Counted from the stretch's first letter, positions 3,450 to 51,243 are shown. The stretch is DNA of 64,000 nt from Candidatus Poseidoniaceae archaeon (GCA_024958795.1 JANXHP010000008.1:2698-66697), one strand, 5' to 3'. Notes: generated from the letters alone by a model not told the origin. Translations and numbers: made by a program.

Positions 3450-3466
3450 AATAGGAGGAAATTGAC

Positions 3467-4603: not shown

Positions 4604-4638
4604 ATCTAAACTCTGTAATTGATAAAGAGGTGTTTTAG

Positions 4639-22663: not shown

Positions 22664-23677
22664 ATGACTGAGGCCAACAATCAATCAATTCCACATCCTG
22701 GAATGTTGAATGTATTTCTTCAATTAATGAAATTAAGGGTTATTGTATTGCTACAAGTAACAGCGGTTTGTGCAATATTAGTCCATGATTTGTTAGCCCG
22801 CCATGACTTGATAAACATAGATCGAACTTGGATGGATACGCTAAACACAATCCTCATCACTGTGGTTGCAGGAACTCTTTCTGCTGGTGGTTCTAATGCC
22901 ATTAATATGTGGTATGATGCAGATATTGATGTCCTAATGAGGCGTACTCAAAACCGCCCAATTCCATTAGGTCATATTTCTGCGAAGGGTGCACTAATCT
23001 TTGGAATAATCATCGCAGTATTAGGTTCATCATTGTTTTTCTTAGTTCACTGGAAGGCAGCATTTTGGTCCTTTTTTTCAGTTGGATTTTATGTTTTTAT
23101 TTATTCAATGCTGCTAAAACGCAGAACTCCGCAAAACATCGTCATCGGTGGAATAGCAGGGGCGACTCCACCTGTAATTGGTTGGGCAGCAGCGGCAGCA
23201 GGTTCAATTGAATCAAACAACCCTTTTGATTTGGGTTCGCCAATCCCTTGGATGTTATTCATGCTGATTTTCTTGTGGACTCCTCCTCATTTCTGGGCTT
23301 TAGCTCTGTACCGTTCTGGTGAGTATGCGAAAGCAAAAGTTCCGATGATGAATGAAGTGAAGGGTCCAAAGCGTACTGTCACGGAGTCAAAAATATACTG
23401 TGTTCTATTATTGCTATTGGGTTCAGTGCCACTGTTTTGGCCCGAATCAGGATTGCCATTACTATGGTCAATTATTGCGACTGTACTGTCATTGTGGTAT
23501 GCGAAATCGGTTTGGAACATCGATCCAATGGAGGGATTAGATGAAAATGGAAGAATGCCAAAAGCGGCTAAATCTTTCTTCCGCTCATTGTATTATTTAG
23601 GGTGGATGTTCCTTGTTTTAGTAGTGGTATGTGCCATCCCTCCTGAGTTACTTGGCTCTCTTGGTCCAATAGTTTGA
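22664..23677 (+). CDS. ctaB: Protoheme IX farnesyltransferase (heme O synthase)
   Basis: UbiA-family motifs are present (NMWYDADIDVLMRRTQNRPIP; PPHFWALAL). The gene lies 2 nt after ctaA. Confidence 0.9.
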   Translation: MTEANNQSIPHPGMLNVFLQLMKLRVIVLLQVTAVCAILVHDLLARHDLINIDRTWMDTLNTILITVVAGTLSAGGSNAINMWYDADIDVLMRRTQNRPIPLGHISAKGALIFGIIIAVLGSSLFFLVHWKAAFWSFFSVGFYVFIYSMLLKRRTPQNIVIGGIAGATPPVIGWAAAAAGSIESNNPFDLGSPIPWMLFMLIFLWTPPHFWALALYRSGEYAKAKVPMMNEVKGPKRTVTESKIYCVLLLLLGSVPLFWPESGLPLLWSIIATVLSLWYAKSVWNIDPMEGLDENGRMPKAAKSFFRSLYYLGWMFLVLVVVCAIPPELLGSLGPIV

Positions 23678-23769: not shown

Positions 23770-23857
23770 GCGGTGATCGCATAGCCTGGCCATTGCGCTG
23801 GATTGCTAATCCAGTGGGCTCGTTCTCACGGGAGTTCGAATCTCCCTCACCGCGCCA
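23770..23857 (+). tRNA. tRNA-Ser (anticodon GCT/GCU), class II, with genomically encoded CCA
   Basis: I folded it by hand. The acceptor stem is GCGGTGA/TCACCGC. The D stem is GCAT/TTGC, and the anticodon stem is CTGGA/TCCAG with loop TTGCTAA. There is a 15-nt variable arm. The T arm is GGGAG-TTCGAAT-CTCCC and the discriminator is G followed by CCA. Total length is 88 nt. Confidence 0.9.
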
Positions 23858-23868
23858 ATTACTTTCTT

Positions 23869-26838
23869 TCAGTCAAAGAAATCGTCAAATTCATCATCAC
23901 TAATATTTGATTTACGACGGTTTCTTGCAGCAAGAACTCGCTTCAATCTCTTTCTCTTCTTCAGAATGAGAGGGATCATAATAATGCTCAAAAACAGAAT
24001 GGTAATGAGTGTTCCACCAGAATACAGGAATATCTCTTTTTGCATTGATTCTTGTAAATCTCCAAGCCATGGAACTCCTAATGGTGGTTCTTCAGGTGGT
24101 GGAGGTACTGGGACAATATGTTGGTTATATTGCCACCAAAGGTCTTCGATGTGAACTCTATTGACATTATTAGATGGGAATATAGCCATAGTATTTTCAT
24201 TACCTACCCAATCAATAGGTGCAAGGATGTAATAGTATGTCCTGTATGGTCTTATCCCATCAATTTCTGTTCCACTTTGGTTGAAATATCCAGTTTCACC
24301 AGGGATTGCTTGGATGTCGCTAACGATTGGTGTAATGAATCTTAAATCTACATTAATTGGACGTGAATCAACTCTGTACAAATTCCAAGTAACAGGGCCG
24401 CTCGCTTCATGTTCAGGCCATATCCAAGTCAAATTTACTTCGTAGCACATATTCCATTCACGTGAAATATCATAACAATCACTTGAGTTAGTGAAATCGT
24501 AACTAGAAACAAAATTGGAAATTGAAACAGATGGTGGAATGGCATCACCACAAATAAGCCCAGGATTTCCATCCATATTCCTTACAATATTGGCTTTTTG
24601 ATAGTCAGGTATTCCAGCTCTATCAGCAGGAATAATTGCGTATGAAGCACATTCCCCGGTCTCCAAAGGAATAGGGTCCAGCCAATTATCTATGTTGACT
24701 GGAATGGTTGTAATAATTGTGTCAAGAGTCAACTCATCCCAGACAAGCGGGTTAATCCCATCACCTGGGTCTGGGAAATAAGTAGAACTGGTTTCGGAAC
24801 CAAGAATTTTGTATATTTTCCAGCCACCAAGATATGGATTTGATAAATCTCCTGAAGAAGTCCAATTCAATTTTATTTGTCCATCTTTGAGGAGAGTATT
24901 GTCAACATTTCCTAAAGTAACATTTGCTTCTGGCAATTCTCCAACGATCAAAATCGCTCCGTTGGAAGTCATTTTTAGAGTAAATGTTCCATCTTCATTA
25001 TTGGTTAATTCATTAGGTCCTTCAACATATGACCAAATATTATGGCTAAGTGAATTAATCTGTCGAACATCAACAGTTGAGAGGTTGATATTCGAGGGTA
25101 ATATTGCACTCATGTTGAGTGTAATCTCCATTGATTCCATTCCAACATCATCAGAACCGTCTAAGGTCGATAGGATCTCAAAAGACATCAACCGCAATGG
25201 TTCTTGACCTGACCCTACGCCATAATTTGTCCCCAAAACCGGTAGTATTGATTCTGTTTCAAGATACGCTTCAGAACGAGTAATAGCGCTTCCAGTATAA
25301 TATGGCTCATCACTGACATCAATATATTCGAATATTGTAATATATTCGTGAACGGTATCAATTGTTCCAAATGAATCTATTATTCTAAGCGTGATAGTGT
25401 GGTCTCCCAATCCCAAAACACTTCCACTGATGTTAAGGATTTGACCATATCCTAAGTTGATGATTCCCGATACCCACCATGAAAAATTTAGGGGCTCAGC
25501 AGCTGTACTTCCAAATCTTGCAACCATCTCAATATCGTCACCAGTATTGTATCTGCCGTTGAAGTTTTCTTGATATATTTCTGCGTGTATATCGCCTGCA
25601 AGTATATCGGCTTGCTCACTGATGATATTATTTGAAGTACTTTGATCTGGACCTCCAAGATATGTATTTGGAGCAGAAATCTTTAGGATTCTGTTGTCCC
25701 CAGTTACAGTGAGGTTAAATTTACAAATTTGGCTTTCGCTTGGCATTAGTGAAATTACTTGACAGTGTTCTTCCATTTTTAATTCACTGCCTATGTCAAA
25801 TACCTCAAACGAAACAAAGAAATTATGAACTGTTTTATTGCCTAAATTTATTACTTCTGAATATACCATTTCATTACCAAAGTAATAGTTTTCTGAAGAA
25901 GAATCATGCCCAGGAGACATTACCGACACACTAACATCTATTGTATCATCAATAATGATGAGCGTTGAAGTAATGTCATTGAAATCATTTAGGTCACTAT
26001 AAGGTGTGCCAGTGCTGTTATACAAGCCCCATATTAGAACATATGTCCCTTCAAATGGATAATTGAAAACAGGCATTTGGTGTTCAAAGGGCATCATATT
26101 ACCTCCAGAGGTCAAACCGGTGTTGAAAGAGTATGCTTCTGCAAGCATTACAGATTCGGCTTGATCCCATAATTGCCACCCAATGGTTGCATTGAAATTA
26201 CATGAACCACAACTGTTGACAGTACCCTTTGCTTTAAGGGAATAATCAGTGTTTGAATTCAATATTTTTTGACCGTCATAGGTGGAAAGCCCTTCTATGT
26301 CATTATGCGGACTCCACGATTCGTCAACAACCAAATCAACAAACGATTGAGTAAGGTTGAAATTAAATTTGAAGAGATCATTACTCGAAAATTGGTCAGA
26401 TTCATCAAATGAATAAACTACAGTGATTATTCCATCTGCACCTGAAGATGGATTCCAATTATTGGTAGATGTGACATTTGAGTACTGGCCTGGAGCAATA
26501 TTTGTTAAGAAAAATTGACCTCTATCATCAAAGGTTGATTTACAAACAGAACCATCTACGTCGCCGATACAAACATGCCAACGCATTACTCTGTTCAAAC
26601 CAGCAGCTGTCAAACCTTGATTCTTTATTTGTGCAGTAAATGAAACTGAGTCAAAATATGAAACCCAATTATCCTTTTCTGGTGAAATAGTATCGGTAAT
26701 TGCCAAATCACCAGTAACAGAAGCACTCGCTCCTGGCAGAGTTGCTAGACCTCCAAGTGAAGAAATAAGAAGTAATAATACGAGGAACAAACTACTACTT
26801 TTGGCCCTGTATTGATATGGCTCGCGCTGCGACATCAT
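23869..26838 (-). CDS. Large (989 aa) secreted surface protein with C-terminal TM anchor and basic cytoplasmic tail
   Basis: The signal peptide is SSLFLVLLLLISSLGGLATLPGASA. The beta-rich sequence contains many N-x-S/T sequons. A PPPPEEPP stalk precedes the TM (LITILFLSIIMIPLIL) and the tail KKRKRLKRVLAARNRRK. Confidence 0.75.
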   Translation of the reverse strand: MMSQREPYQYRAKSSSLFLVLLLLISSLGGLATLPGASASVTGDLAITDTISPEKDNWVSYFDSVSFTAQIKNQGLTAAGLNRVMRWHVCIGDVDGSVCKSTFDDRGQFFLTNIAPGQYSNVTSTNNWNPSSGADGIITVVYSFDESDQFSSNDLFKFNFNLTQSFVDLVVDESWSPHNDIEGLSTYDGQKILNSNTDYSLKAKGTVNSCGSCNFNATIGWQLWDQAESVMLAEAYSFNTGLTSGGNMMPFEHQMPVFNYPFEGTYVLIWGLYNSTGTPYSDLNDFNDITSTLIIIDDTIDVSVSVMSPGHDSSSENYYFGNEMVYSEVINLGNKTVHNFFVSFEVFDIGSELKMEEHCQVISLMPSESQICKFNLTVTGDNRILKISAPNTYLGGPDQSTSNNIISEQADILAGDIHAEIYQENFNGRYNTGDDIEMVARFGSTAAEPLNFSWWVSGIINLGYGQILNISGSVLGLGDHTITLRIIDSFGTIDTVHEYITIFEYIDVSDEPYYTGSAITRSEAYLETESILPVLGTNYGVGSGQEPLRLMSFEILSTLDGSDDVGMESMEITLNMSAILPSNINLSTVDVRQINSLSHNIWSYVEGPNELTNNEDGTFTLKMTSNGAILIVGELPEANVTLGNVDNTLLKDGQIKLNWTSSGDLSNPYLGGWKIYKILGSETSSTYFPDPGDGINPLVWDELTLDTIITTIPVNIDNWLDPIPLETGECASYAIIPADRAGIPDYQKANIVRNMDGNPGLICGDAIPPSVSISNFVSSYDFTNSSDCYDISREWNMCYEVNLTWIWPEHEASGPVTWNLYRVDSRPINVDLRFITPIVSDIQAIPGETGYFNQSGTEIDGIRPYRTYYYILAPIDWVGNENTMAIFPSNNVNRVHIEDLWWQYNQHIVPVPPPPEEPPLGVPWLGDLQESMQKEIFLYSGGTLITILFLSIIMIPLILKKRKRLKRVLAARNRRKSNISDDEFDDFFD

Positions 26839-27020: not shown

Positions 27021-28097
27021 ATGCAGGAACCCGTTTACTCTCACACAGAGAGGGAGGATGGAGCAATAACTGCAGTAGTTGAATTCCTAACAGCGTTTGT
27101 ACTGTTCTTGATGATACTAACTGCATTTTTGTCTTTAGCCCAATTACAAATGGGTTCGAATGACCCTGCTCTAGACCGATTAGATGGTGCTGTAGTACTG
27201 GGGATGGATCGTATTAGTTCAGATGAGGGCTGGTTTGTTCCTCTAAAAAATGAGGAATTAGATTTTGGTAATGCAACTGCAAATTGGCATTTGTTTTCAG
27301 CCGAGCAATTAGATGCAGGTAGAGTTCAAGCAGGACTATTGGTTGATGGAGAAATAAATGAGACGAAAATTAATGCATTGCATAATGTTAGTGAGGATGG
27401 ATTTGCATTAGGAATTGGATTAAATGAAGGATATAGTTTCCACTTAAACATAATGATTACCGATAGTAGTGACCTTCAACGAATGGACAAAGTATTGTTC
27501 GATGGTGGTACGGAGAAGCACGGTACACGTTCATCTTCAACATCTTACCGTAATTTCTATCAAAATGATGAAACTATTCAAATTATTCTTGAAGTTCATG
27601 ATGGTGGACGTAAGGAGAATCAATTACAAATTACGGAAGTACATCCACGTCCAACACAAATAGGTCCGGAGTGGATTGAAATACATAATCCGAATGACTT
27701 TGCAGTATCTTTGTATGGTTGGTCACTGACTCACACATCAGGTTCTTCAACCTCAAATTTGCTTCTAAAAGAGGGAATAATTACTGGTCATGCAACTGCT
27801 TTGTTCACTGGAGATCCTTCAAGTCAAGATAATGGAAATGCAAGTGAAGTTATTGATCTGGGTGCTGAAGGATTCCTTGGAGTAGGTTCAATTGATAATT
27901 TAGCAAATGGTAATGGGCAATTAACTTTGAAATATACACAAGTGTTTGAATCACGTCCAGTTGATATTCAGCGAATTAATTGGGGTGGAGACTCAGGATT
28001 ATTCCTAATCAACGGTCAATCAATTGTTTGGGATGGCACCTCTATGTTTGATTCTGCTTCATGGTCAATTACTGATGACCCATCTCCAGGAAATTGA
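27021..28097 (+). CDS. Membrane-anchored lamin-tail-domain (LTD) protein with pilin/TadE-like N-terminal hydrophobic segment
   Basis: The C-terminal LTD pattern is LQITEVHPRPTQIGPEWIEIHNPNDFAVSLYGWSLTH...NGNGQLTLKY. The N-terminus is EREDG-AITAVVEFLTAFVLFLMILTAFL. The track ORF start at 26817 overlaps the divergent gene, so the Met at 27021 is preferred. Confidence 0.7.
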   Translation: MQEPVYSHTEREDGAITAVVEFLTAFVLFLMILTAFLSLAQLQMGSNDPALDRLDGAVVLGMDRISSDEGWFVPLKNEELDFGNATANWHLFSAEQLDAGRVQAGLLVDGEINETKINALHNVSEDGFALGIGLNEGYSFHLNIMITDSSDLQRMDKVLFDGGTEKHGTRSSSTSYRNFYQNDETIQIILEVHDGGRKENQLQITEVHPRPTQIGPEWIEIHNPNDFAVSLYGWSLTHTSGSSTSNLLLKEGIITGHATALFTGDPSSQDNGNASEVIDLGAEGFLGVGSIDNLANGNGQLTLKYTQVFESRPVDIQRINWGGDSGLFLINGQSIVWDGTSMFDSASWSITDDPSPGN

Positions 28098-28202: not shown

Positions 28203-28985
28203 ATGCAGCCCGCAGCAGTTTACACCCGTGATAGATGCGTAACAGGCATCCATGGATTAGATGAAATTCTTCGTGGCGGAATACCATATGGGTCAACAGT
28301 ATTATGTTCAGGAACATGTGGTTCTGGAAAGACCACAGTTGGAATGGAATTCTTGGTGAGAGGAGCACTCGCAGGCGAGGCGTGCGCGCATTTTACAGCG
28401 ACTGAACCTTCGGTAAAGTTGCTAGAAAACATTCGCCAATTCGCATTTTTTGACATGAATATGGTTGACACTGGCTTGATCAATGTTTTTGATATGGACG
28501 TGTTATATTCTTGGTTAGGATTGGAAAAATCATCTTTTGATTTGGATGACGTTCACGCTTTAATCAAAGCGATTGTCGATATAGTGAATACTATTGGTGT
28601 TACACGTTTGGTAATTGATTCTGTTACAACACTTTGTTACAAGATTAAGTCCGAACAACTAATCAGAGATTTCCTTTTTACTTTAGGAAAGAAATTGTCA
28701 ACCTTAGGTTGTACAACCATACTAGTTTCAGAAATCACATCCGCTACAGAAAATGCTCATTGGTCATCTTTCGGTGTTGAAGAAGCAATTGCTGACGGCA
28801 TTATTGTAATGGGTGATGTTGAAAGAATGGGACACCTTCTAAGATTTTTACAAGTGGTAAAAATGCGTGGAACTTCACATTCTAGGGCAAAACATGCGAT
28901 TGAATTAACACCGATTGGTGTAATGTTAACTCCTATGCTCAAATGGGGCGCTCAGAGTGATAAACAAGGCAAATGGGGTGCTTGA
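28203..28985 (+). CDS. KaiC-like / RecA-superfamily ATPase (single domain, intact motifs)
   Basis: GIHGLDEILRGGIPYGSTVLCSGTCGSGKTT contains the Walker A motif. RLVIDS is Walker B. The LRFLQVVKMRGTSHS motif is typical of KaiC/RadA-like proteins. Confidence 0.85.
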   Translation: MQPAAVYTRDRCVTGIHGLDEILRGGIPYGSTVLCSGTCGSGKTTVGMEFLVRGALAGEACAHFTATEPSVKLLENIRQFAFFDMNMVDTGLINVFDMDVLYSWLGLEKSSFDLDDVHALIKAIVDIVNTIGVTRLVIDSVTTLCYKIKSEQLIRDFLFTLGKKLSTLGCTTILVSEITSATENAHWSSFGVEEAIADGIIVMGDVERMGHLLRFLQVVKMRGTSHSRAKHAIELTPIGVMLTPMLKWGAQSDKQGKWGA

Positions 28986-28987
28986 TC

Positions 28988-29572
28988 ATGTTTGAATTAG
29001 ACCAAAGAATCGCGGAACAACTCACAGAAGTCGCTCTTAACAGTGCAGTTCAAGTTCGCTGCGGAAACTCAAACGCATTCATGGTTACTGCTAGTACTAT
29101 GATTCCATTAATGCAAATGTTTGAGATGGGTGGTGTATATATTTCTGGAAGCAGAAGCGCAATGGAAATGATAGAGGCCTTTGAGACAATTGGAATTGAT
29201 GTGTCTCACATTCAGTTCATTGATTTGGTTTCTTCAGGCGTATTAGGTGGTACAGATGTCGACAGAACAAATATCCATTTCATCGATTCACCTATCATGT
29301 TAGAATCTGTATTACTTAGGACTCTATATCTGTTGAGAACAACATCTCTTGAACGTAATTTCGTAATATTAGATAGTGTAAACTCATTGGCGATTTACAA
29401 TGAAGACAGGATGCTTGCTGAATATCTTCATACATTCATCAACACCTTTAGACAAAGAGAAGTTCTTTCCGTGATATTGAATGTTCCAGACCAAACACCT
29501 CCATTGGTATTATCAAATCTTGATTTGTATTGTACAGACCTAATTGACAGAGGGCAAGTCGTAATTCATTGA
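28988..29572 (+). CDS. RecA/KaiC-fold-like protein lacking a P-loop (DUF835-like, predicted inactive)
   Basis: There is no GxxxxGK[ST] motif. A Walker-B-like strand is retained (NFVILDSVNSLA), as is the downstream pattern EYLHTFINTFRQREVLSVILNV. The ATG at 28988 follows the upstream stop by 2 nt. The family call is inference. Confidence 0.5.
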   Translation: MFELDQRIAEQLTEVALNSAVQVRCGNSNAFMVTASTMIPLMQMFEMGGVYISGSRSAMEMIEAFETIGIDVSHIQFIDLVSSGVLGGTDVDRTNIHFIDSPIMLESVLLRTLYLLRTTSLERNFVILDSVNSLAIYNEDRMLAEYLHTFINTFRQREVLSVILNVPDQTPPLVLSNLDLYCTDLIDRGQVVIH

Positions 29573-29582
29573 GGTATTTGTT

Positions 29583-30386
29583 ATGAATAAACAATATACA
29601 TTCAAGAAAGAAGACGAAGAGTTCTTCGGAGAAGTGGGCTCTTTTGGAGTCCCAAAATTCGATGGTGAAATGCATGGTGGTGTCCCAAGGGGGTTCACGA
29701 TGGTCAGTTTTACAGATACTGGTTCGGGTTCTGAGTTATTCGGTAAACAATTTACTTCACCAGCCGAGGAATCAGAAAACACACTATATGTTTCAACTAA
29801 TGAAGGGCAACAAGAAATAGCCCGTGTTTTCAAAAAATATGGATGGCCTTTAGACATCAGTGTTAGAACCATTGGAGAAGAATACAATAGTGAAGTTTTG
29901 GAGAAGGAACTTCTAGCTAGCAGATATCGGCTTGAAGGATTTAGATTAGAAGATATTCAAAGATTAGCTCAAACAAGATTTGTTGATGAAACACATCAAG
30001 ATTATCTAACCGAAGTAACAAATGAAATCATGTCACTTGGGCCATATTTTAGAGTGGTAATTGACAATTTGGATTTCTTCTTGCAACGAGAAGATAACGC
30101 CAAAGTAGTCGCCATGGTTAGAATGTTGCAGGCTCATGCCCAACTGATGCGAGGCCTATTGCTAATCAACATCTCTAATGATGGATTAAACCCTTCAATA
30201 AAGCAAGAATTAGCATCGATTGCTGACATGGTACTTTCATTCAAAGTAAGAACAATTGGAACAGACTTTGAAACATCAATGATCGTTTCAAAATTCCGTA
30301 ACGCTCCTGAGAATTTGAAAATACTTGTATTCAGAGTTACGCCTGCAGAAGGTATCACTCCAGAAACTGTTGAGCGTATTTCTTGA
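29583..30386 (+). CDS. KaiC-like paralog with degenerate Walker A (predicted non-catalytic)
   Basis: FDGEMHGGVPRGFTMVSFTDTGSGSELFG aligns to the KaiC N-terminal region, with GSGSE in place of GSGKT. The Walker-B-like segment is RVVIDNLD. The C-terminal SKFRNAP occupies the place of the K(M/L)RG motif. Confidence 0.65.
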   Translation: MNKQYTFKKEDEEFFGEVGSFGVPKFDGEMHGGVPRGFTMVSFTDTGSGSELFGKQFTSPAEESENTLYVSTNEGQQEIARVFKKYGWPLDISVRTIGEEYNSEVLEKELLASRYRLEGFRLEDIQRLAQTRFVDETHQDYLTEVTNEIMSLGPYFRVVIDNLDFFLQREDNAKVVAMVRMLQAHAQLMRGLLLINISNDGLNPSIKQELASIADMVLSFKVRTIGTDFETSMIVSKFRNAPENLKILVFRVTPAEGITPETVERIS

Positions 30387-30447: not shown

Positions 30448-31191
30448 ATGGCTACGCGTGATGCTACTGGTGGTTTTGACCCCTCCGGCATCGATGAAGA
30501 AGAATGGAATAAATTGAAGTTGCAACTTGAGGCAACTATTCCAAATTATGACAGAGTCAATAGATTGATGACTTTCGGGCAAGATAAGCGATGGAGAAAG
30601 AATGTTCGTAATCATGCTACTGAAGGTATGAAAGTACTCGAAGTAGGATGCGGCCCCGGTTCTTTTGCAGAAGATTTAGTAGGCTTGGATGTAACGTGTC
30701 TTGACCCATCAGCGTTGATGCTAAAATTTGCTAAACAACGTGTCGATGCAGCGCGAGCTTTACGCGGAGAATCTCCAGCTGAGTATGTAGAAGCGATTGC
30801 GGAAAGCATTCCGTTGCCAGATAATACATTTGATATGGTATTTTGTTTATTTTCGTTTAGAGATTTTAAGGATAAGAAGCAGGGATTGACTGAGATTATT
30901 AGGGTTCTAAAGCCAGGTGGCCAACTTGTAATCTGTGATGCTGGAAAAGCAAATTGGTTACATGGTCTATTCGGCGCCATATGGATGGCTACAGTTGTAC
31001 AATTGATGGCACGAATTGTCACCAAAGATAAGAATCATCCTTGGAAAGGTCTTGCGAGGACTTACACCCATTATGGCAGCAATGGATATTATCGGAAAAT
31101 GATGAGAGAAGTTGGCTATAATGAAGTGCAAGGTCGCTTACTTCTTCCTCTTGGAATGGCGAGTAGATTCCGTGGAAGAAAGCCTCAATAA
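30448..31191 (+). CDS. UbiE/MenG-family SAM-dependent methyltransferase (demethylmenaquinone/ubiquinone type)
   Basis: YDRVNRLMTFGQDKRWRK is the family N-terminal motif. The SAM-binding segment is VLEVGCGPGSF. LKPGGQLVICD is also present. Confidence 0.8.
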   Translation: MATRDATGGFDPSGIDEEEWNKLKLQLEATIPNYDRVNRLMTFGQDKRWRKNVRNHATEGMKVLEVGCGPGSFAEDLVGLDVTCLDPSALMLKFAKQRVDAARALRGESPAEYVEAIAESIPLPDNTFDMVFCLFSFRDFKDKKQGLTEIIRVLKPGGQLVICDAGKANWLHGLFGAIWMATVVQLMARIVTKDKNHPWKGLARTYTHYGSNGYYRKMMREVGYNEVQGRLLLPLGMASRFRGRKPQ

Positions 31192-31327
31192 TGAGATATT
31201 TTCAAAGGGTATAATCTTGAAAAATCAATGTTTTTGATATTTTTTAGGGTGAAATTGCCAACTTGATGCCCCACTAATCTCATAAACCCCTTTCATCTCG
31301 CCGTCAATATTGGTGATTGTAATGGGT

Positions 31328-31639
31328 ATGGCTGAAGTTCTCCGAAGCATCAAGGATGCGGAACAGGCTGCTGAAAAGCGCTTGTCTAACGCACAAGATG
31401 AATCCTCTAAAATTATGGCAGATGCCCGAAGAAAAGCGTCTGAATTAATCACTGAAGCAACTGATGATTCGGTTAAGAATACTCAATCTACATTGGATAA
31501 ATCACGTAAAGCAGCAAACAAAGATGCTGACAAGGTCAAATCCAAGGGAGCAAAAGGAGTCGAAACTATCGAATCCGCTGCAAGTGATCGTCAAGGCGAT
31601 GCAGTACAATTAATCGTAGATTCTCTAATGCCACAGTAA
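31328..31639 (+). CDS. atpH: A-type ATP synthase subunit H
   Basis: This is a ~103-aa charged helical protein (MAEVLRSIKDAEQAAEKRL...) at the head of the atp operon. A GGTGA sequence lies upstream of the ATG at 31328. The track start at 31310 is less likely. Confidence 0.75.
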   Translation: MAEVLRSIKDAEQAAEKRLSNAQDESSKIMADARRKASELITEATDDSVKNTQSTLDKSRKAANKDADKVKSKGAKGVETIESAASDRQGDAVQLIVDSLMPQ

Positions 31640-31649
31640 GGGTGATTCA

Positions 31650-33716
31650 ATGTTTGTAACCGTTGACATGTCCCGTTTGACAGTGGCTGCACCTGTTGAT
31701 AAGATGGAGCAGGTACTACGTATTTGTTCTGACATGGGATGCGTACACATTGAGGAATATGGCAATTTTGAAGATGGCATTGGAGTTGGACAAGCAATTG
31801 ATAACGATAATGCAAATTCAGTCAGTAGCTTGTTAACAAAAGTTCGTGGTGCAAATGCGCATTATTCTCCTAACAATGTCAAAGGACCAAAGTCCGCTTC
31901 TGAAGTTCAAAAAATAATTGATTCTGGTTTCGAAGAAATTGTTGACCAAGGATTAGCGTTTGCCGATGCGGTAAGAGATGCTGAAGCAGAAATTGAATCA
32001 AAGAGTAACCAACTGGCTATTTTGAAGAGAATAGAACCACTAAACATTCCATTGGATTTGCTAACAAGCACAGACCGTTTGGAAGTTTATGTAGTTGAAT
32101 CGGCAAAATCAAATACACTTTACAACACAATTGTCCAAGATTTGGGCAAGGATGTAGAAGTGCATGCTGAATCAAATGTAGTAGCAATCGCATGCCTACC
32201 GAAACATGCTACTGATGTTCAATTGATAATGAATGAACAAAATGCAAGAGCAATCCAAGTTCCTAGTGGAGAAGGTTCTCCTTCAAAGGTAATCTCCTCA
32301 CTAACAAAAGAAATTGGCAAACTGCAAAAGACAGTGGCTGAGAATTCTACTAAAGGAGATTCCTGGATTGGCACACATGGTAGAGACCTCGTAATAATGG
32401 AAGAGTATCTTACAAGAGAAGATGCTATTTTCACAGCACCAACACTCTGTGCAGTATCCAATCAAGCATTTGCAATTGATGCATGGGTTCCAACTTCTAA
32501 TGCATCCATGATTGAGAATGCCCTTTCATCCATCGCTTCCCATGTTGAGGTTGAAGAATATGTTAACGATCATCATCACGATGAAGATGATGATGGCCAT
32601 CACCATGCAACACCTCCAATCGCATTAGAAAATGGAGATGTTTCAAAACCATTCGAGGTACTTGTTGATTTGGTAGGTCGTCCAAAGTATGGCACAATTG
32701 ACCCTACAAAATTGATGATGCTAACATTCCCTATATTCTATGGAATGATATTGGGAGATTGGGGATATGGAATAATTATTCTACTTCTAGCAAATTGGCT
32801 TGGAAGTAAACCGTTCGCTGTTGAACCAATAGCCAAGAACGGAATGATTATCCTAAAATGGATGGGTGTTTGGTGTATCATTTGGGGGATTATTTTCGCT
32901 GAAGGATTTGGATTCATTTGGGATGGTTCACCAGGTGCAACAGGACCACATATTGGAATCCTTGCAGATTTCTATACATGGACATACAACACATTCCATG
33001 TTCCTGGAGTTATTGGTGACTTAACTGGATTAACTGGATTGCATATGCCTTTCCACAGAGCAGTTGAAGGACATGGTTTGCAAGAATATATTCTTCTTGC
33101 AGTCTATATTGGAGTCGTACATCTTTTCGCTGGTTCTATTATTGGATTTATCAATGTCTACAGAGCACACGGACTTACAGCCGCATATTTCGAAAAGGGT
33201 TCATGGATACTGATTCTCATCGGTGGTTTCATGCAATGCAGAAACTTGGTTAGTGGATACAATGAATTGTTTGAATTCCAGATATGGACTGCGTTTTTGT
33301 TAATTGGAATTGGTAGCCTAATAATCGGTCTTGCAGTGTTTGAGAAATTAGGATGGATTGGTGGGATCATCATGGGTCCAATTGAGACATTCGGTCTTCT
33401 TGCAAATACACTCTCTTACTTGCGTATTATGGCAGTCGGTGTATCCGGTGTAAAAATCGCAGAAATCTCAATTACAATGGGATGGCAAATGATGTGGGGA
33501 GGAGATATTGTCAGTTTCATTTTCGGATTCATCATTTTCATCTTCATACAAATATTCGCTTTAGGCCTAGGAATACTCTCGCCGAGTATTCACGCAATCC
33601 GTCTCCACTTTGTGGAATGGATGGGCAAGTTTTACGACGGCTCTGGTGTGATTTTCAATCCACTAGGCGGCCGCACCCTACACGTTGAGGGTATATCACA
33701 GTCCAATGGACAATAA
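31650..33716 (+). CDS. atpI: A-type ATP synthase subunit I (a-subunit homolog)
   Basis: The ORF is 688 aa. A soluble N-terminal half is followed by a polytopic C-terminal half containing LSYLRIMAVGVSG (the essential Arg region). Confidence 0.9.
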   Translation: MFVTVDMSRLTVAAPVDKMEQVLRICSDMGCVHIEEYGNFEDGIGVGQAIDNDNANSVSSLLTKVRGANAHYSPNNVKGPKSASEVQKIIDSGFEEIVDQGLAFADAVRDAEAEIESKSNQLAILKRIEPLNIPLDLLTSTDRLEVYVVESAKSNTLYNTIVQDLGKDVEVHAESNVVAIACLPKHATDVQLIMNEQNARAIQVPSGEGSPSKVISSLTKEIGKLQKTVAENSTKGDSWIGTHGRDLVIMEEYLTREDAIFTAPTLCAVSNQAFAIDAWVPTSNASMIENALSSIASHVEVEEYVNDHHHDEDDDGHHHATPPIALENGDVSKPFEVLVDLVGRPKYGTIDPTKLMMLTFPIFYGMILGDWGYGIIILLLANWLGSKPFAVEPIAKNGMIILKWMGVWCIIWGIIFAEGFGFIWDGSPGATGPHIGILADFYTWTYNTFHVPGVIGDLTGLTGLHMPFHRAVEGHGLQEYILLAVYIGVVHLFAGSIIGFINVYRAHGLTAAYFEKGSWILILIGGFMQCRNLVSGYNELFEFQIWTAFLLIGIGSLIIGLAVFEKLGWIGGIIMGPIETFGLLANTLSYLRIMAVGVSGVKIAEISITMGWQMMWGGDIVSFIFGFIIFIFIQIFALGLGILSPSIHAIRLHFVEWMGKFYDGSGVIFNPLGGRTLHVEGISQSNGQ

Positions 33717-33730
33717 TGGAGGTAGCAAAA

Positions 33731-34033
33731 ATGAATGTAAACACCCTAAAAAATAGCCTACGCGCACTGATTGTAATGCTGGCACTAACCCTTGTAGCAC
33801 AAGGTGTAGCAGCAGAAGCAGCCACTGACGCAACATCTGGAATAACTGGAGATATCGGAGTCGGCCTTTCCCTTGGCCTTGCCGGAGTCGGTGCAGGTAT
33901 TTCTCAAGCAGGAATCGGCAGCGCAGCTGTTGGTATGCTTGCTGAGGACAGTAGCAAGTTCGGTACTGCAATTATCTTCACAGCTCTGCCTGAATCAATT
34001 GTGATTCTAGGTGCATTGCCAATGTTCATCTAA
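33731..34033 (+). CDS. atpK: A-type ATP synthase subunit K (proteolipid c)
   Basis: A Gly/Ala-rich hairpin (GLAGVGAGISQAGIGSAAVG ... ALPESIVILG) carries the carboxylate Glu. A GGAGGT Shine-Dalgarno sequence at 33719 favours the ATG at 33731 over 33716. Confidence 0.85.
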   Translation: MNVNTLKNSLRALIVMLALTLVAQGVAAEAATDATSGITGDIGVGLSLGLAGVGAGISQAGIGSAAVGMLAEDSSKFGTAIIFTALPESIVILGALPMFI

Positions 34034-34089
34034 AGATGGCACAACAGATTGGGTTATCCCAATCATAGAATAAATTCGGAGGAAATATC

Positions 34090-34653
34090 ATGACACTTGA
34101 AACATTAGCAAAAGACATCGCATCATCTGCGGAAGCAGAAGCAAAAGCCATCTTGAAAGAGGCAAAGGCTTCAGCCAAGAAGATTGTTGCAGAAGCAGAA
34201 GCCAAGGCCAACACTATCCGCGAGGAAGCAGAAAGCCGTACTTCACGTGAGGCAGAACAACTTGCAAGAGAAATCGTTGCAAGTGCTCGTCAATCCAATC
34301 AAAAGGATGTGCTTGTAGCACGTCGCGCAGTATTGGATGCCACATTTGAAACAGCACGAGGACAACTAGCAGACCCAGCATTATCTGGAAGGGCTTCAAT
34401 TCTGAAAGGATTGATGGCTCAAGCAGATGAAGTGGCGGTTGGTGACTTTACTGTTCGCCCAGTTGCTATTGATCGTGCGGCTCTATCTGATATCGCTGGC
34501 TCTAGAGGCATGGGCGATGATGTTGAAGGCTTAGGCGGCTTTATTCTTGAAGCAGCAGATGGTTCAGTTTCTTTCGATATGAGATTTGATACGCTTCTCG
34601 ACCAAGTATGGATTGACAAGCGTGCATTAATCAATTCAACACTTTTTAATTGA
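34090..34653 (+). CDS. atpE: A-type ATP synthase subunit E
   Basis: The ORF is 187 aa with a long N-terminal charged helix (AEAEAKAILKEAKASAKKIVAEAEAKA) and a globular C-terminus. Operon position supports the call. Confidence 0.85.
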   Translation: MTLETLAKDIASSAEAEAKAILKEAKASAKKIVAEAEAKANTIREEAESRTSREAEQLAREIVASARQSNQKDVLVARRAVLDATFETARGQLADPALSGRASILKGLMAQADEVAVGDFTVRPVAIDRAALSDIAGSRGMGDDVEGLGGFILEAADGSVSFDMRFDTLLDQVWIDKRALINSTLFN

Positions 34654-34662
34654 GGAATAAAT

Positions 34663-35703
34663 ATGGTAATGCTCGGTAGAAAACCCTATGTCGCCGCTCG
34701 CGCTAAATCGCGTAAGCAAAAACTAGCGGACCGTGCACGCCTACGTCAATTAATCAATCAATCACCTGAACAAATGACTGTTGCTGTTGGTGACATGGGT
34801 TACCGCACAGAAATGGATCTATATGCTGGAAAATATTCTGGTGGAGATCTAGTTGAGGCAGCGCTAACTCACAATTTGGAGCATGAGTTGAAGGAGATTG
34901 TAGGAATGTGTAATGGTTCAATCCGTGCAATTGTAGAAGTATACACTCTTCGTTTTGAATATCAAAATGCCAAAGTAGTTCTACGGGCAGTAATTAACGA
35001 TGTTGACCTAGATAAAGTGTCAAACAGTATATTGCCTGCATTGAATGATATCAACACTCCTTGGTTGAAGATGGTAGAAAATGCAGATGACCTAAGGTCT
35101 GCTGCAACTCAAATGCGAAGAATGTCATTCGGTTCAGAACTAATGTCTCTACCAGATGATGCTAAATTAGCAGATTATGAGAATGCACTTGATAGACATT
35201 ATTTCAAGAAGTCATTGACATCACTTAGCCAAAAAGGTGCTGATGTTAGATTTTTGAGAGACTTGTTAAAATCAGAAATAGACCACCGTAACATCCTCAA
35301 TATTATTGAGGCCGAAGCAGTTGGCATCGCTAATGATGAAATCATTGAGTTGTTAATTCCAGGTGGTAGATTGATTCCAGAAAGAGCATTCTCTTCTATT
35401 GCAGCTGGTGGAAAAAGAGCTGCACTTGATATTCTAAGAAGTGCTAATCGCTTTGAAATGCAATCATTTGAAGAAGCATTAACTGTATCGAAATCCGAAA
35501 ATAGTCTTGATTCAGTAATTAATTGGTTTAAAGCTAGAGAACACGCATTATTACAGCGCATGAGTTACCTACACCCTGTTTCAGCCTTACCTATTGTTAA
35601 TTATGTGGCATTAAAGGTACAGGAAGTTACAGATTTACGTTTAATCGTTCGTGGACGTCTAGCAGGACTGCCACCTGAAGTGTTAGAGGCACACATACTC
35701 TGA
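34663..35703 (+). CDS. atpC: A-type ATP synthase subunit C
   Basis: This is a 346-aa helical protein at the canonical E-C-F position of the operon. Confidence 0.85.
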   Translation: MVMLGRKPYVAARAKSRKQKLADRARLRQLINQSPEQMTVAVGDMGYRTEMDLYAGKYSGGDLVEAALTHNLEHELKEIVGMCNGSIRAIVEVYTLRFEYQNAKVVLRAVINDVDLDKVSNSILPALNDINTPWLKMVENADDLRSAATQMRRMSFGSELMSLPDDAKLADYENALDRHYFKKSLTSLSQKGADVRFLRDLLKSEIDHRNILNIIEAEAVGIANDEIIELLIPGGRLIPERAFSSIAAGGKRAALDILRSANRFEMQSFEEALTVSKSENSLDSVINWFKAREHALLQRMSYLHPVSALPIVNYVALKVQEVTDLRLIVRGRLAGLPPEVLEAHIL

Positions 35704-35712
35704 GGTGATAAT

Positions 35713-36012
35713 ATGGAGATCGTAATAGTCGGTACACCAGAATTCACACTCGGATTCCAGTTAGCTGGAATTTCCACTCTCTACAATCCTGAAGATGATG
35801 AAGCAATGGCTTCAACATTGAGAGGATTGCTAAATAACAAAAATGTGGGGGTTGTCGTAATTGACTCCGCAACCCAAGCCGCATTACCCGAGCGTCTTCG
35901 CGAAAGACTCTCAACATCCGTCTCCCCAACCGTTCTTGGTATCGGTACTGAGGAGGACACCACTTTGCGAGATACAATTCGTAAAGCAATAGGAGTCGAC
36001 CTATGGAAGTGA
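35713..36012 (+). CDS. atpF: A-type ATP synthase subunit F
   Basis: The ORF is 99 aa and begins MEIVIVGTPEFTLGFQLAGI, the typical subunit F N-terminus. Confidence 0.9.
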   Translation: MEIVIVGTPEFTLGFQLAGISTLYNPEDDEAMASTLRGLLNNKNVGVVVIDSATQAALPERLRERLSTSVSPTVLGIGTEEDTTLRDTIRKAIGVDLWK

Positions 36013-36041
36013 ATTTCCAAAAAATAATGGAGGAATAAAAA

Positions 36042-37781
36042 ATGAAGAATGAAGGATTAATTTACCGTATTTCCGGTCCAGTGGTTACCGCCATTGACAT
36101 GAAAGCGGCGATGTACGATGTTGTCCGTGTTGGTACGGAAGGACTGATGGGCGAAGTGATTGAATTACACGGCGATAAGGCTGTTATCCAAGTTTACGAG
36201 GATACATCTGGAATACGCCCTGGAGAAGTAGTAGTAAATACCGGTGAGACTTTATCAGTTTCACTTGGACCTGGTTTACTAACTCAAATCTATGATGGAA
36301 TTCAAAGACCTCTTCCTACACTTGAAAAAGAAATGGGTGTTTTCCTAACTCGTGGTGTAGATGCTGATGCATTTGACCTTGAGAAGATTTGGACCTTTGA
36401 GCCGCAAGTCTCTGTTGGAGATAGCGTCGTTGGAGGACAGGTTATTGGACACGTCCAAGAAACAGATACCATCGTTCACAAGATTATGGTCGTTCCAGGA
36501 AATGGTGGAGTGGTCAAGTCTATTGAATCCGGAGATTTCAATGTCACACAAACCATCTGCACTTTTGAAGATGGAACTGAAATGCAGATGATGCAAAAGT
36601 GGCCTGTACGAACTCCTCGCCCATATCAACAAAAGTATGCACCAGTTATTCCTCTTGTTACTGGAATGCGTATTCTTGATTTCCTTTTCCCACTGGCAAA
36701 GGGTGGCGCAGCAGGTATCCCTGGACCTTTCGGCTCTGGTAAGACAGTGACACAGCAATCTCTTGCAAAATATTCTGATGCACAACTGGTTGTTTACATC
36801 GGTTGCGGAGAGCGTGGAAATGAGATGACTGAAGTATTGGATGAATTCCCTCATCTAATCGACCCAAATACTGGAAAGCCATTGATGAACAGAACAGTGA
36901 TGATCGCAAATACATCAAATATGCCTGTTGCTGCACGTGAAGCTTCTGTGTACACAGGAATTACAATCGCTGAGTATTATCGTGACATGGGTTACGATGT
37001 TGCTCTAATGGCTGATTCAACATCTCGTTGGGCAGAAGCAATGCGTGAGATTTCCTCTCGTCTTGAAGAAATGCCTGGTGAAGAAGGTTATCCTGCTTAC
37101 CTATCAACTCGTATTGCTGAGTTCTATGAACGTGCAGGTCGTGTTGAGACATTGAATGGCGAAGACGGCTCCATTACTGTAATCGGTGCTGTATCGCCTC
37201 CTGGTGGTGACATTTCAGAACCTGTATCACAAGGTACACTTCGTATTGTCAAGGTTTTCTGGGGTCTAGATGCAGGTCTTGCAAGACAACGTCACTTCCC
37301 TGCGATTAACTGGTTGAATTCATATTCACTATACCCGCAGAGTCTTGACCAATGGTTTAGAGATAACATTGCACAAGATTTCCCAGAAGTTCGTATTGAA
37401 CTATCTGGATTGTTGCAAATTGAATCCGAGTTACAAGAAATTGTACAACTTGTTGGTTCTGATGCACTTCCGGTTGACCAACAATTGACTCTTGAAGTTG
37501 CTCGTATGATTCGTGAGTATTTCCTACAGCAAAACGGATTCCACGATGTAGATGCATATTGTGATATTCATTTACAATACAAGATGGCAAAGGCAATCTT
37601 AGCATTCCAAGAATCAGCTAAGTCCGCAATGGCATCTGGAGCACAACTTGGGGATGTTGTAAACGTCCCTTCACGTTCAGATCTAATGCGTGGTCGTTTA
37701 AACAAAGGATATGTCGACACTATCGATGACATGGTAAAAACCATGAACGATGAAATCGCTGCTACCGTGGAGGAGAACTGA
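36042..37781 (+). CDS. atpA: A-type ATP synthase catalytic subunit A
   Basis: Walker A is GPFGSGKTV. Other motifs are [16 protein letters not shown] and [18 protein letters not shown]. The ORF is 579 aa with no intein. Confidence 0.97.
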
Positions 37782-37793
37782 GGGGGAATTATC

Positions 37794-39173
37794 ATGACTG
37801 GAAAGGAATATAGAACAATTACAGACGTCAAGGGACCTCTAGTTTTCTTGAATAAGACTGAACCTGTTGCATTTGGTGAAATCGTTTCTCTACGATTGTC
37901 CAATGGAACTGTAAAGAACGGACAAGTTCTTGATACATCTAACGATTTAGTTATCGTACAAGTGTTTGAAGGAACTGCAAAGATTGACAGAGAGGCTGGT
38001 GTAACATTCTTAGGGGATGTTTTCAAACTCCCTGTTTCAACTGATTTAGTCGGGCGTATTCTCGATGGTGCAGGAAGACCTCGTGATGGTGGACCAGATA
38101 TCGTTGCAGAAAAGTACGACGATATTATCGGAGCAGCTATCAATCCGTTCAGCCGTCGTAGCCCACACGATTTCATTCAAACTGGAATCTCCGCTATTGA
38201 CTGTTGCACTTCATTAGTTCGTGGACAAAAGTTGCCGATTTTCTCAGCATCAGGTCTACCGCACAATGATATTGCATTGCAAATTGCTCGTCAAGCGAAG
38301 TTGACAGGTTCTGATGAAGAGTTCGTAGTAGTATTCTGTGCTATGGGAATTACTGCTGAAGAATACAATTTCTTCCGTGCAGATTTGGAGAGAACTGGTG
38401 CGCTTGAAAAGGCGGTATTATTCGTTAACTTAGCGGATGACCCTGCTGTTGAGCGTATTATTACCCCTCGTCTTGCTTTGACCGCTGCAGAATACCTTGC
38501 ATTCGAAAAGGATTACCACGTACTGGTTATCTATACTGATATGACAAATTATTGTGATGCTCTGCGTCAAATTGGTGCAGCTCGTGAAGAAGTACCTGGA
38601 CGTCGTGGTTATCCTGGATATATGTACACTGATTTAGCAATGCTTTACGAGCGTGCGGGATTGATTAAGGGTAAGAAGGGTTCAATCACTCAATTCCCTA
38701 TTCTAACAATGCCTGGAGACGATATTACTCACCCGATTCCTGACTTGTCTGGATATATTACTGAAGGACAAGTGGTTATTTCTCGTGAATTACATCAGCA
38801 AGGTATCTATCCGCCGATCAACGTACTACCTTCATTGTCCCGTCTAATGGGTTCCTGTATTGGAGAGAAGACAACTCGTGAAGACCACAAGTCTGTTTCC
38901 GACCAAATGTATGCTGCATATGCTCAAGGCCGTGAATTACGCGGTCTAGTTGCAATTGTTGGTGAAGATGCACTCAATGAACGTGATAAGCAACTTCTAG
39001 ATTTCTCAGGTGTATTTGAGGATAAGTTCCTTCGCCAATCTCGTGATGAAGATCGCAGTATTGATGAAACACTTGACTTATGTTGGACTTTGATGTCTGC
39101 AATTGATACCAAGTACCTAGTACGTTTGGACCAAAAGTGGATTGACAAGTATCATCCTGACAACAGGAAGTGA
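37794..39173 (+). CDS. atpB: A-type ATP synthase subunit B
   Basis: Motifs seen: [16 protein letters not shown] and [21 protein letters not shown]. The ORF is 459 aa. Confidence 0.97.
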
Positions 39174-39198
39174 ATTTACTAACAATAATTGAAGGGAG

Positions 39199-45870: not shown

Positions 45871-46045
45871 GTTGTTGTTGAATAGAAAATCACAATTTTT
45901 TGACTAATAATATTTGCTTTTGGCTTTTTTTATTTGGTATTCAAAAGCGCTTCACTGAACCTTGAGAAAGGGATTGTTTAATACCTGTCGCGATTGGGTG
46001 TTTGAAATAAGGTCGGGGCGAAATTCTCGACAAAGAGGGATAGGG

Positions 46046-49957: not shown

Positions 49958-49962
49958 GATAA

Positions 49963-51231: not shown

Positions 51232-51243
51232 GGAGTTATTTAC

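Follow-up and report, generated by a model that had tools for sequence, protein, structure and literature searches.

We analysed a 64-kb window (the whole 64,000-nucleotide stretch of DNA at hand) from the lineage Candidatus Poseidoniaceae (Marine Group IIa) and concentrated on three consecutive genes, g1, g2 and g3, which an earlier note made from the sequence alone had described as one catalytic and two degenerate relatives of the ATPase KaiC. The three open reading frames (ORFs) begin and end where that note had put them, and its spacings of 2 nucleotides (nt) and 10 nt were also correct: the TGA of g1 is followed by TC and then the ATG of g2 at 28988, and the TGA of g2 by GGTATTTGTT and the ATG of g3 at 29583. 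Upstream lie a gene for a putatively pilin-like protein with a Lamin Tail Domain (LTD) and, divergent from it, a gene for a giant surface protein. Across the phylum Thermoplasmatota, the KaiC-like pair or triad invariably adjoins type IV pilin-type genes. The five genes of the locus, and the motifs read from the translations of g1, g2 and g3, are as follows.

23869 to 26838, minus strand: giant surface protein, 989 residues, with an N-terminal signal sequence, a Pro-rich linker, a C-terminal transmembrane helix and a basic tail
27021 to 28097, plus strand: LTD protein, putatively pilin-like, 358 residues; Pfam LTD, 36.6 bits
28203 to 28985, plus strand: g1, 260 residues, predicted single-domain KaiC-like ATPase with intact motifs
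28311 to 28334, plus strand: g1 Walker A, GTCGSGKT
28605 to 28622, plus strand: g1 Walker B strand, RLVIDS (D139)
28860 to 28871, plus strand: g1 KMRG motif, also placed by alignment to KaiC CI
28988 to 29572, plus strand: g2, 194 residues, predicted shortened KaiC fold without a P-loop
29357 to 29392, plus strand: g2 Walker-B-like segment, NFVILDSVNSLA
29480 to 29569, plus strand: g2 C-terminal 30 residues, NVPDQTPPLVLSNLDLYCTDLIDRGQVVIH, near-constant between Group IIa and the Group IIb locus L001
29583 to 30386, plus strand: g3, 267 residues, predicted full-length KaiC fold with a pseudo-P-loop
29712 to 29735, plus strand: g3 pseudo-P-loop, TDTGSGSE
29793 to 29807, plus strand: g3 STNEG, with one Glu
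30048 to 30080, plus strand: g3 Walker-B-like FRVVID
30291 to 30302, plus strand: g3 finger-like motif, KFRN

Sequences resembling Shine-Dalgarno elements (GGGGTG and GAGGT) stand 7-12 nt 5' of the g2 and g3 starts. A second possible ATG for g2, at 28973, would run into g1; the evidence favours 28988 as the probable start, because the N-terminus M-[FI]-E-L-D is kept in orthologs, including those of Group IIb. Relatives of the locus were drawn from two sets. The Poseidoniaceae set came from a pattern search with two g2 motifs, the pattern including the C-terminal 30 residues of g2, which found relatives in 274 GTDB species genomes; the best 80 loci of these were retained, and synteny was counted only where the contig spans the region. 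The metagenome set comprised 80 loci from many different samples, whose ORFs were scored with hidden Markov models (HMMs) for g1, g2, g3 and Pilin_N; 61 of them had upstream coverage and 50 were informative, that is, reached at least 1.5 kb downstream. The g1-g2 gap was 2 nt in 74 of the 80 Poseidoniaceae loci and the g2-g3 gap was 9-14 nt; in other lineages neighbouring genes of the set overlap by 4-8 nt. Ratios of nonsynonymous to synonymous substitution (dN/dS), computed for the window genes against four close relatives, were 0.007-0.033 for g1, 0.020-0.042 for g2 and 0.008-0.039 for g3, at or below those of the adjacent ubiE. Because these ratios are very low, we concluded that g2 and g3 are, by this sequence measure, functional proteins under strong purifying selection. 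In the same loci, ubiE and ATP synthase subunit I were less well conserved than g1 and g2.

The g1 product scored 179.8 bits against the Pfam family KaiC (PF06745; gathering cut-off, 26.6 bits), and its closest PDB sequences were the KaiC CI domain, PH0186 and PH0284; its identity between Group IIa and Group IIb was 79%. The intact GTCGSGKT, RLVIDS and KMRG motifs that had been claimed for it each translated at the claimed or located positions. GTCGSGKT was unchanged in 65/65 distinct Poseidoniales orthologs, and among 10 orthologs from Poseidoniales and other Thermoplasmatota-type loci residues G37, G40, G42, K43, T44, E68 and D139 were invariant and the segment K-M-R-G-T-x-H-S-R mostly so. 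The P-loops of g1 orthologs outside Poseidoniales, where read, were G..GTGKT, mostly GS[VIC]GTGKT. In the alignment to KaiC CI the counterpart of the KMRG motif is the KLRG/KFRG segment; from what is generally known of KaiC, the motif is presumably the Lys/Arg finger region. A role for g1 as a defence component was considered and rejected, PADLOC having given only a 21-bit match to mad8.

The g3 product also exceeded the Pfam KaiC cut-off (59.7 bits); its family matched the g1 family in hhalign with 96.6% probability (E = 6.5e-10), and its AlphaFold2 (AF2) model, with a predicted local distance difference test (pLDDT) score of 83.9, retrieved KaiC, FlaH (third), SSO2452 and PH0186 in Foldseek at E ~1e-12. 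A weak match to Pfam DUF7125 was also seen. Pfam, hhalign and Foldseek therefore agree with the earlier reading of g3 as a KaiC-type protein with TDTGSGSE at 29712-29735. The Lys and Thr of the P-loop were lost in 71/71 Poseidoniales orthologs, the glycines being kept (G-[SA]-G-[SAMC]-[ED]), and the g3 P-loops outside Poseidoniales, where read, were G.PG.G[LTAI][ED]. One ortholog (L091:7656-8405, GCA_024449895.1) has the P-loop GNPGSGKE, in which Glu has taken the place of Thr but Lys is still present, and appears to be an intermediate in P-loop decay; the series GSGKE, GSG[T/L]E, GSGSE would then record the stepwise decay of a P-loop and provide an example of how pseudo-enzymes originate in ring ATPases. 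Outside the P-loop, g3 keeps a Walker-B-like Asp (in FRVVID) and one Glu (ST.E), and where g1 has K-M-R-G it has a conserved [KR]-F-R-N.

For g2, the absence of any P-loop was borne out: the beta1-loop-helix segment reads VQVRCGNSNAF. The catalytic Glu after beta2 and the C-terminal hairpin bearing the K-x-R finger are also missing; a Walker-B-like strand, FVILD (D129 invariant), and a family motif, DSP.MLE, are kept. The g2 sequence is 100% identical to a protein of a metagenome-assembled genome at NCBI. Against Pfam KaiC, g2 itself scored 22.4 bits (E = 8.8e-5), under the cut-off. All 58 members of a g2-family sample matched Pfam KaiC at E ≤ 1e-3 (best, 2.6e-9), and among ten g2-profile matches scanned apart two exceeded the cut-off (P0263, 33.5 bits; P0266, 30.3 bits). 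The g2 model, made from an alignment of 58 sequences (pLDDT, 88.8; predicted template modelling score, pTM, 0.87), retrieved FlaH 4yds as the top Foldseek match, together with KaiC CI and PH0284 (E 6e-7 to 1.5e-6; template modelling score up to 0.70), and RecA was among the fold-search matches. Searched against PDB sequences, the g2-family profile gave no match at E ≤ 10; searched against 1.84 billion cluster representatives, the g2 profile matched 649 clusters at E ≤ 1e-3, many of them stand-alone proteins of ~190 residues. By Pfam and Foldseek, and for g3 also by hhalign, both g2 and g3 do profile to the KaiC/RecA fold that had been claimed for them. We concluded that they share this fold but should not be called ATPases, because a functional Walker A (GxxGxGK[ST]) is found in g1 only. 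The NCBI automatic name for g3 is 'RAD55 family ATPase'.

The earlier note had likened g2 to the DUF835 type. Its description as a P-loop-less derivative of KaiC stood, but membership in DUF835 (PF05763; cut-off, 33.1 bits) did not, g2 giving no match at E ≤ 1. Matches at E ≤ 1e-3 among the 58 family members were to DUF7504 in 25, to DUF7090 in 15 and to DUF835 in 3. Some g2 relatives passed the 27-bit cut-off of DUF7504 and DUF7090 (P0271 with DUF7090, 32.2 bits; P0294 with DUF7504, 34 bits); g2 itself matched neither. DUF7504 and DUF7090 would be families related, not demonstrably identical, to g2, and from their co-matches with KaiC we read them as probably P-loop-less and KaiC-like. The g2 protein is a member of a wider, poorly characterised group of P-loop-less KaiC-like domains. 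Its last 30 residues carry 2 substitutions between Group IIa and L001, the whole protein being 66% identical; the motif is absent in g2 relatives outside Poseidoniales, and these residues probably form a surface for interactions peculiar to the lineage.

Some larger proteins (P0294, P0301, P0305 and P0307) end in a g2-like domain as their C-terminal module; its N-terminal partners there include multi-pass membrane regions, a DUF835 domain (separate from the g2-like domain in P0305) or TPR repeats, and it looks like a reusable adaptor. A single sequence of 387 residues, P0478, begins as a g1 ortholog for ~200 residues and continues directly as a complete g2-like protein; the g1 C-terminus is missing from it, its Walker A is damaged (SRSVGTGKT), and it could be either a real fusion, hinting at contact between g1 and g2, or an artefact of assembly or gene calling. 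These same features made it too doubtful for use as Rosetta-stone evidence. On a lagoon long-read contig (L004:6830-7991) the g1 and g2 orthologs are broken into four short called genes; as tblastn still aligns most of their length, at 63% and 58% identity, they are probably not pseudogenes, and the breaks would be frameshifts introduced in assembly.

The 358 residues given for the LTD protein assume a start at the ATG at 27021; its longest ORF extends back to 26817. Close to the N-terminus of the protein is a hydrophobic helix (27063-27143) that is nearly invariant among 69 orthologs, with [GA] followed by [LIVM][TV]AV[IV]EFL[ST]AF.LFLMILTAF, the rest of the protein being ~45% identical; such a contrast is typical of pilin-like proteins. 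The leader ahead of it is short (~13 residues) and of mixed charge, with [GA] at −1, and the Lamin Tail Domain is near the C-terminus; the ortholog in locus L177 begins 13 residues ahead of the motif. This N-terminal pattern fits a class III (prepilin-type) signal peptide and suggests a pilin-like protein. Signal peptides of this class have a short charged leader, Gly/Ala at −1 and a conserved hydrophobic helix and are cleaved by an A24 peptidase; the assignment applies the FlaFind motif rule, reportedly set out by Szabo et al. in 2007. The giant surface protein gave no match to any Pfam family.

The three genes, treated as a unit in the earlier note, were found together in every covering Poseidoniaceae locus and in Group IIb; outside Poseidoniales the triad occurred in 38/50 loci and the g1-g2 pair in 12/50. 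The order giant protein (minus strand), LTD protein (plus strand), g1, g2, g3 was kept in every covering Poseidoniaceae locus, and the divergence of the giant-protein gene from the LTD gene was also seen in the Group IIb loci L001 and L176. Identity to the window ranged over 90-99% for g1, 83-98% for g2, 66-99% for g3, 42-87% for the LTD protein and 33-80% for the giant protein. In the Group IIb loci L001-3 the five-gene block lies in other surroundings, with gyrA upstream; as the flanks differ there, the five genes travel together. Downstream, ubiE and the A-type ATP synthase genes are neighbours in Group IIa only. In the metagenome set, a g1 ortholog lay immediately 5' of the g2-like gene in 60 of 61 loci, and all of the informative loci outside Poseidoniales (50/50) carried 1-3 Pilin_N-type genes within 250 nt, on the same strand and 3' of the pair or triad. 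Other loci were arranged as follows.

L085, a Methanomassiliicoccales metagenome-assembled genome: KaiC(240)-g2-like(189), with a Pilin_N gene 1.4 kb downstream
L088: KaiC-g2-Pilin_N
L091: KaiC-g2-g3
L092-L094: KaiC-g2-g3-Pilin_N(x1-2)
L095: KaiC-g2-Pilin_N
L176, Poseidoniales, Group IIb-type: giant protein (minus strand), LTD-like protein (384 residues), g1, g2, g3 and, after an 11-nt gap, a Pilin_N-like protein of 173 residues starting ...SAVSPVIATVLLLAITV
L177, Poseidoniales, Group IIb-type: A24-like peptidase (333 residues), LTD protein (356 residues), g1, g2, g3 and, after a 9-nt gap, Pilin_N (170 residues)

In L001 an A24-like peptidase adjoins g3 (motif HGGADAKA; Arc_PepC_II, E = 8.5e-6, under the cut-off). 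The coupling of the trio to the LTD and giant surface proteins that had been proposed from the window is upheld by synteny, and the presence of Pilin_N and A24-peptidase genes beside the block in other lineages strengthens it.

Membership of the trio in several named families was considered and rejected. Against the ArlH profiles (NF052589 and NF006320; NCBIfam cut-off, 215 bits) g1 scored 35.3 and g3 48.0 bits, and g2 gave no ArlH match, only one to NF004723 at 12.7 bits. Against the circadian KaiC profiles (TIGR02655 / NF006799; cut-offs, 546 and 408 bits) g1 reached 101.8 and 131.8 bits, and it is a single domain with no KaiB-like neighbour. Scores against RadA and RadB (cut-offs, 259 and 172 bits) were all far below the curated values. 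The failure at the ArlH cut-off, and the absence of an ArlI/ArlJ-type or archaellin gene among the window ORFs scanned (the Pfam scan covered 36) or beside the orthologs in other lineages, bear out the suggestion that this set is not a characterised archaellum or pilus accessory set.

We propose, giving it about an even chance on our analysis, that the trio forms a mixed KaiC-like complex in which g1 alone is active and which acts as a nucleotide- or phospho-dependent switch, or as an accessory, for a pilin-type surface structure. As paralogues from one operon, g1, g2 and g3 would act together in the cytoplasm, and only g1 would bind and turn over ATP. In KaiC-type rings (RecA-type hexamers) the Lys/Arg finger reaches the active site of the neighbouring subunit; g3, because its P-loop is without Lys and Thr, would not bind nucleotide in the conventional way, and its K-F-R motif could complete the g1 site in trans, with g2 as a structural or adaptor subunit. 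The complex would be tied to type IV pilin-like surface proteins, here the LTD protein and probably also the giant surface protein, and in relatives the Pilin_N pilin immediately downstream; the switch would govern the assembly, processing or production (expression) of the pilin-like surface structure. The association of the three proteins has indirect support in their fixed order, their 2-14 nt gaps or overlaps and their equal purifying selection; the hetero-oligomer, ATP turnover by g1, completion of its site by g3 and the molecular target are what we infer. Among known KaiC-like proteins, ArlH controls its own oligomerisation and its binding to ArlI by autophosphorylation (bioRxiv 10.1101/2021.03.19.436134), CirA regulates pilin-linked motility in Haloferax, with pleiotropic effects (PMC10983859), and KaiC families are enriched in the neighbourhood of type IV pilus loci in archaea (Makarova et al. 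2016, PMC4858521).

Several results weigh against this proposal. Where KaiC CI has Glu-Glu (E-E), g1 has one Glu (TATEPS, T-E). In hhalign the g2 family matched the g1 family with 3% and the g3 family with 2% probability, neither significant, and because of this the kinship of g2 rests on borderline or sub-threshold Pfam matches together with its predicted fold. Neither the N-terminal 80 residues of the LTD protein nor the whole protein matched a Pfam pilin family (Pilin_N, PF07790, E ≤ 10), and a custom Pilin_N HMM found no match anywhere in the window. The Group IIa lineage is without a Pilin_N gene after g3, having ubiE there instead. An A24-like peptidase stands beside the block in two lineages only (L001 and L177), and no homolog of it was found in the window. 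No pilus assembly ATPase or platform gene of the T2SSE/T2SSF type was present among the 36 window ORFs scanned, nor was a T2SSE/T2SSF gene seen within 6-8 kb of the orthologs in annotated contexts elsewhere, so that no ArlI-like docking partner is evident.

If the trio were instead a generic KaiC-type signalling hub or timer, that is, a phospho-switch or slow ATPase, perhaps even a diel one, with a global output, its position beside pilin genes would reflect co-regulation. This reading, which we consider unlikely, suits the closeness of g1 to the KaiC CI domain, and a core regulator would be expected to be conserved, as g1 and g2 are, beyond the level of ubiE or ATP synthase subunit I. The host archaea are light-driven photoheterotrophs, and KaiC-like ATPases with their inactivated homologues were reportedly proposed as archaeal signalling hubs by Makarova, Galperin and Koonin in 2017. 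The pleiotropic effects of CirA (PMC10983859) point in the same direction. However, the operon encodes neither a partner of the KaiB, KaiA or thioredoxin-like kind nor an evident output domain, these single-domain proteins fall far under the circadian KaiC cut-offs, and same-strand adjacency to pilin genes in 50/50 loci is hard to explain without a dedicated link. That the heteromer is itself a motor, extracting or assembling pilin-like proteins in place of a PilB/ArlI-type ATPase, we regard as quite improbable; we know of no KaiC-like protein that works as a translocation motor, and the operon encodes no membrane platform protein. Nonetheless, the pair or triad is never without pilin genes, and in none of the annotated contexts is a T2SSE/T2SSF gene close by; L177 has peptidase, pilin-like and KaiC-like genes in one string; and the carrier L085 belongs to the Methanomassiliicoccales, Methanomassiliicoccus being reported to be without all type IV pilus secretion ATPases (PMC4858521). 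Such local absence means little, since archaeal pilin genes are commonly far from their machinery (PMC12448462). A self-contained and hitherto unrecognised system of Thermoplasmatota for filament or surface-protein biogenesis, in which a KaiC-like hetero-hexamer with pilins and an A24 peptidase would do the work of PilB/ArlI, appears to us highly improbable. If it were true, an Elp456-like ring of the RecA superfamily, with one live and two dead paralogues, would replace the PilB/ArlI secretion ATPases that, to our knowledge, serve every known type IV filament system.

Two further readings look away from the cell surface. A recombinase is helped by catalytically dead paralogues of the RecA fold in Rad55-Rad57, the Shu complex or aRadC, and the trio might by analogy be a recombination-mediator complex of RadA paralogues. 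The NCBI name of g3, the presence of SSO2452 and RecA among the fold and sequence matches, and MutS and MutL a few kb off in L176 and L177 would agree with this, but g1 scored only 22.4 bits against RadB (cut-off, 172) and 16.1 bits against RadA (cut-off, 259), g2 and g3 gave no matches, and the neighbours that never vary are of pilin type, with no gene of DNA metabolism consistently beside the trio; we think such a role very improbable indeed. We find it barely credible that the trio is an Elp456-like hetero-hexameric ring, a dimer of trimers that would bind RNA or tRNA and serve RNA modification. Its architecture does match the eukaryotic hetero-hexameric RecA-like ring of Elp4/5/6 (PMC11050213), and Elong_Iki1 was matched by 7/58 g2-family members (best E, 4.2e-4) and PAXNEB (Elp4) by g1 (E = 0.05). 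All of these matches are, however, far under the Pfam cut-offs, no Elp4/5/6 structure was among the top 50 Foldseek matches of g2 or g3, no Elp3 or tRNA-modification neighbour was seen, and the pilin neighbourhood favours a surface role. Elp456 orthology, with weak Iki1/PAXNEB support alone, was therefore rejected, and the likeness stays an architectural analogy.

Of the known systems, ArlH (FlaH) resembles the trio in being a single-domain KaiC fold of ~230-260 residues; its structure 4yds was the top match of g2 and the third of g3, it was the best named NCBIfam match of g3, and both systems are encoded with genes of the type IV pilin-superfamily filament. The nucleotide- and autophosphorylation-dependent control that ArlH exerts on its partner ATPase is our working model for the proposed switch. 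The trio differs in lying outside an arlB-F-G-H-I-J operon, with no ArlI/ArlJ nearby, and in consisting of three paralogues, two unable to bind ATP conventionally, whereas ArlH is one protein with its Walker A kept. Of the inactivated KaiC-like domains of archaea, DUF835, DUF7504 and DUF7090 are matched by g2 relatives and DUF7125 weakly by g3, and the g2-like domain also occurs fused to membrane, TPR or DUF835 modules; in contrast, g2 itself reaches none of the cut-offs of these families, and the inactive domains here are separate proteins, encoded in constant order beside an active paralogue and pilins. CirA and the KaiC-like regulators near pilus and archaellum loci (arCOG01171/01174/01175) share a genomic or genetic link to pilin-dependent behaviour, but CirA is a single active protein of a haloarchaeon, encoded divergently from the arl genes, whereas the present module is a set of hetero-paralogues co-oriented with pilin genes and found so far in Thermoplasmatota only. 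Cyanobacterial KaiC, the CI domain of which is the best match of g1, has Walker A, Walker B and K-x-R-G in common with it; KaiC is a double-domain homo-hexamer working with KaiA and KaiB and has E-E, whereas g1 is a single domain and has T-E. The Elp4/5/6 ring and the Rad51-paralogue complexes likewise unite several paralogues of the RecA/KaiC fold in one hetero-oligomer (Elp456: PMC11050213). They show no detectable orthology to the trio and act in tRNA modification or DNA repair, whereas the context here is pilins. Some of their subunits have degenerate nucleotide sites.

The earlier note had known of no described system of this composition, which holds for the specific module but not for the general concept; the existence of KaiC homologues whose ATPase domains are inactivated was reportedly described by Makarova et al. 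in 2017. Because such homologues and an association of KaiC with pili had already been put forward in 2016/2017, the novelty is in the module and not in the concept. In the literature, the full text of Makarova 2017 aside, we found no description of a fixed operon that joins an active KaiC to one or two pseudo-KaiCs and to pilin genes, nor of its form with LTD and giant proteins in Marine Group II. Marine Group II, one of the most abundant groups of archaea in the plankton, is uncultured, and what is held of its surface structures and attachment behaviour comes from genes alone; the module would give a concrete handle on the control of surface filaments or adhesins in these cells and in soil and sediment Thermoplasmatota. 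Few archaeal KaiC-like ATPases have known partners, and here a phylum-wide set of a predicted active subunit with one or two pseudo-ATPases comes with a clear candidate output.

Some minor observations concern the surroundings of the module. In three related loci, L088 (8395-8613), L092 (8232-8441) and L094 (8893-9132), the pilins are followed by a small conserved protein of 69-79 residues with the ending ...GW.WWV, which may be of the winged-helix type; it was rejected as a core member, not being found in 39 metagenome loci that reach at least 500 nt beyond the last pilin. In the window, a gene for a UbiE/MenG-type methyltransferase (30448-31191) starts 61 nt after g3. In twelve loci (L051, L055, L056, L058, L059, L061, L064, L068, L070, L071, L082 and L084) ubiE is inverted and ~0.2-3.5 kb of extra sequence follows g3; the insert of one such Group IIa locus, L064, was scanned and held no Pilin_N match. 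Same-strand ORFs from 31310 to 39825 resemble an A-type ATP synthase operon, judged from the translations of those up to 36012 (small subunit H-like, subunit I of 688 residues, proteolipid, and E/C/F-like), and subunits H and I are syntenic across Group IIa loci. On the other side of the module, tRNA-Ser(GCT) (23770-23857), the only RNA gene found in the window, separates the giant-protein gene, at its 3' end, from a gene resembling heme O synthase (22664-23677), and a cluster at 1791-5952 encodes a DUF4350 protein, a MoxR-type AAA_3 ATPase and a DUF58 protein. Sets of the MoxR/vWA type were named as possible pilus-associated regulators by Makarova et al. in 2016. Finally, at 45962-51858, SMC (1331 residues) and ScpB (204 residues) are encoded on either side of a 422-residue ORF (49963-51231) without a Pfam match, which by its position could be a divergent, ScpA-like kleisin.

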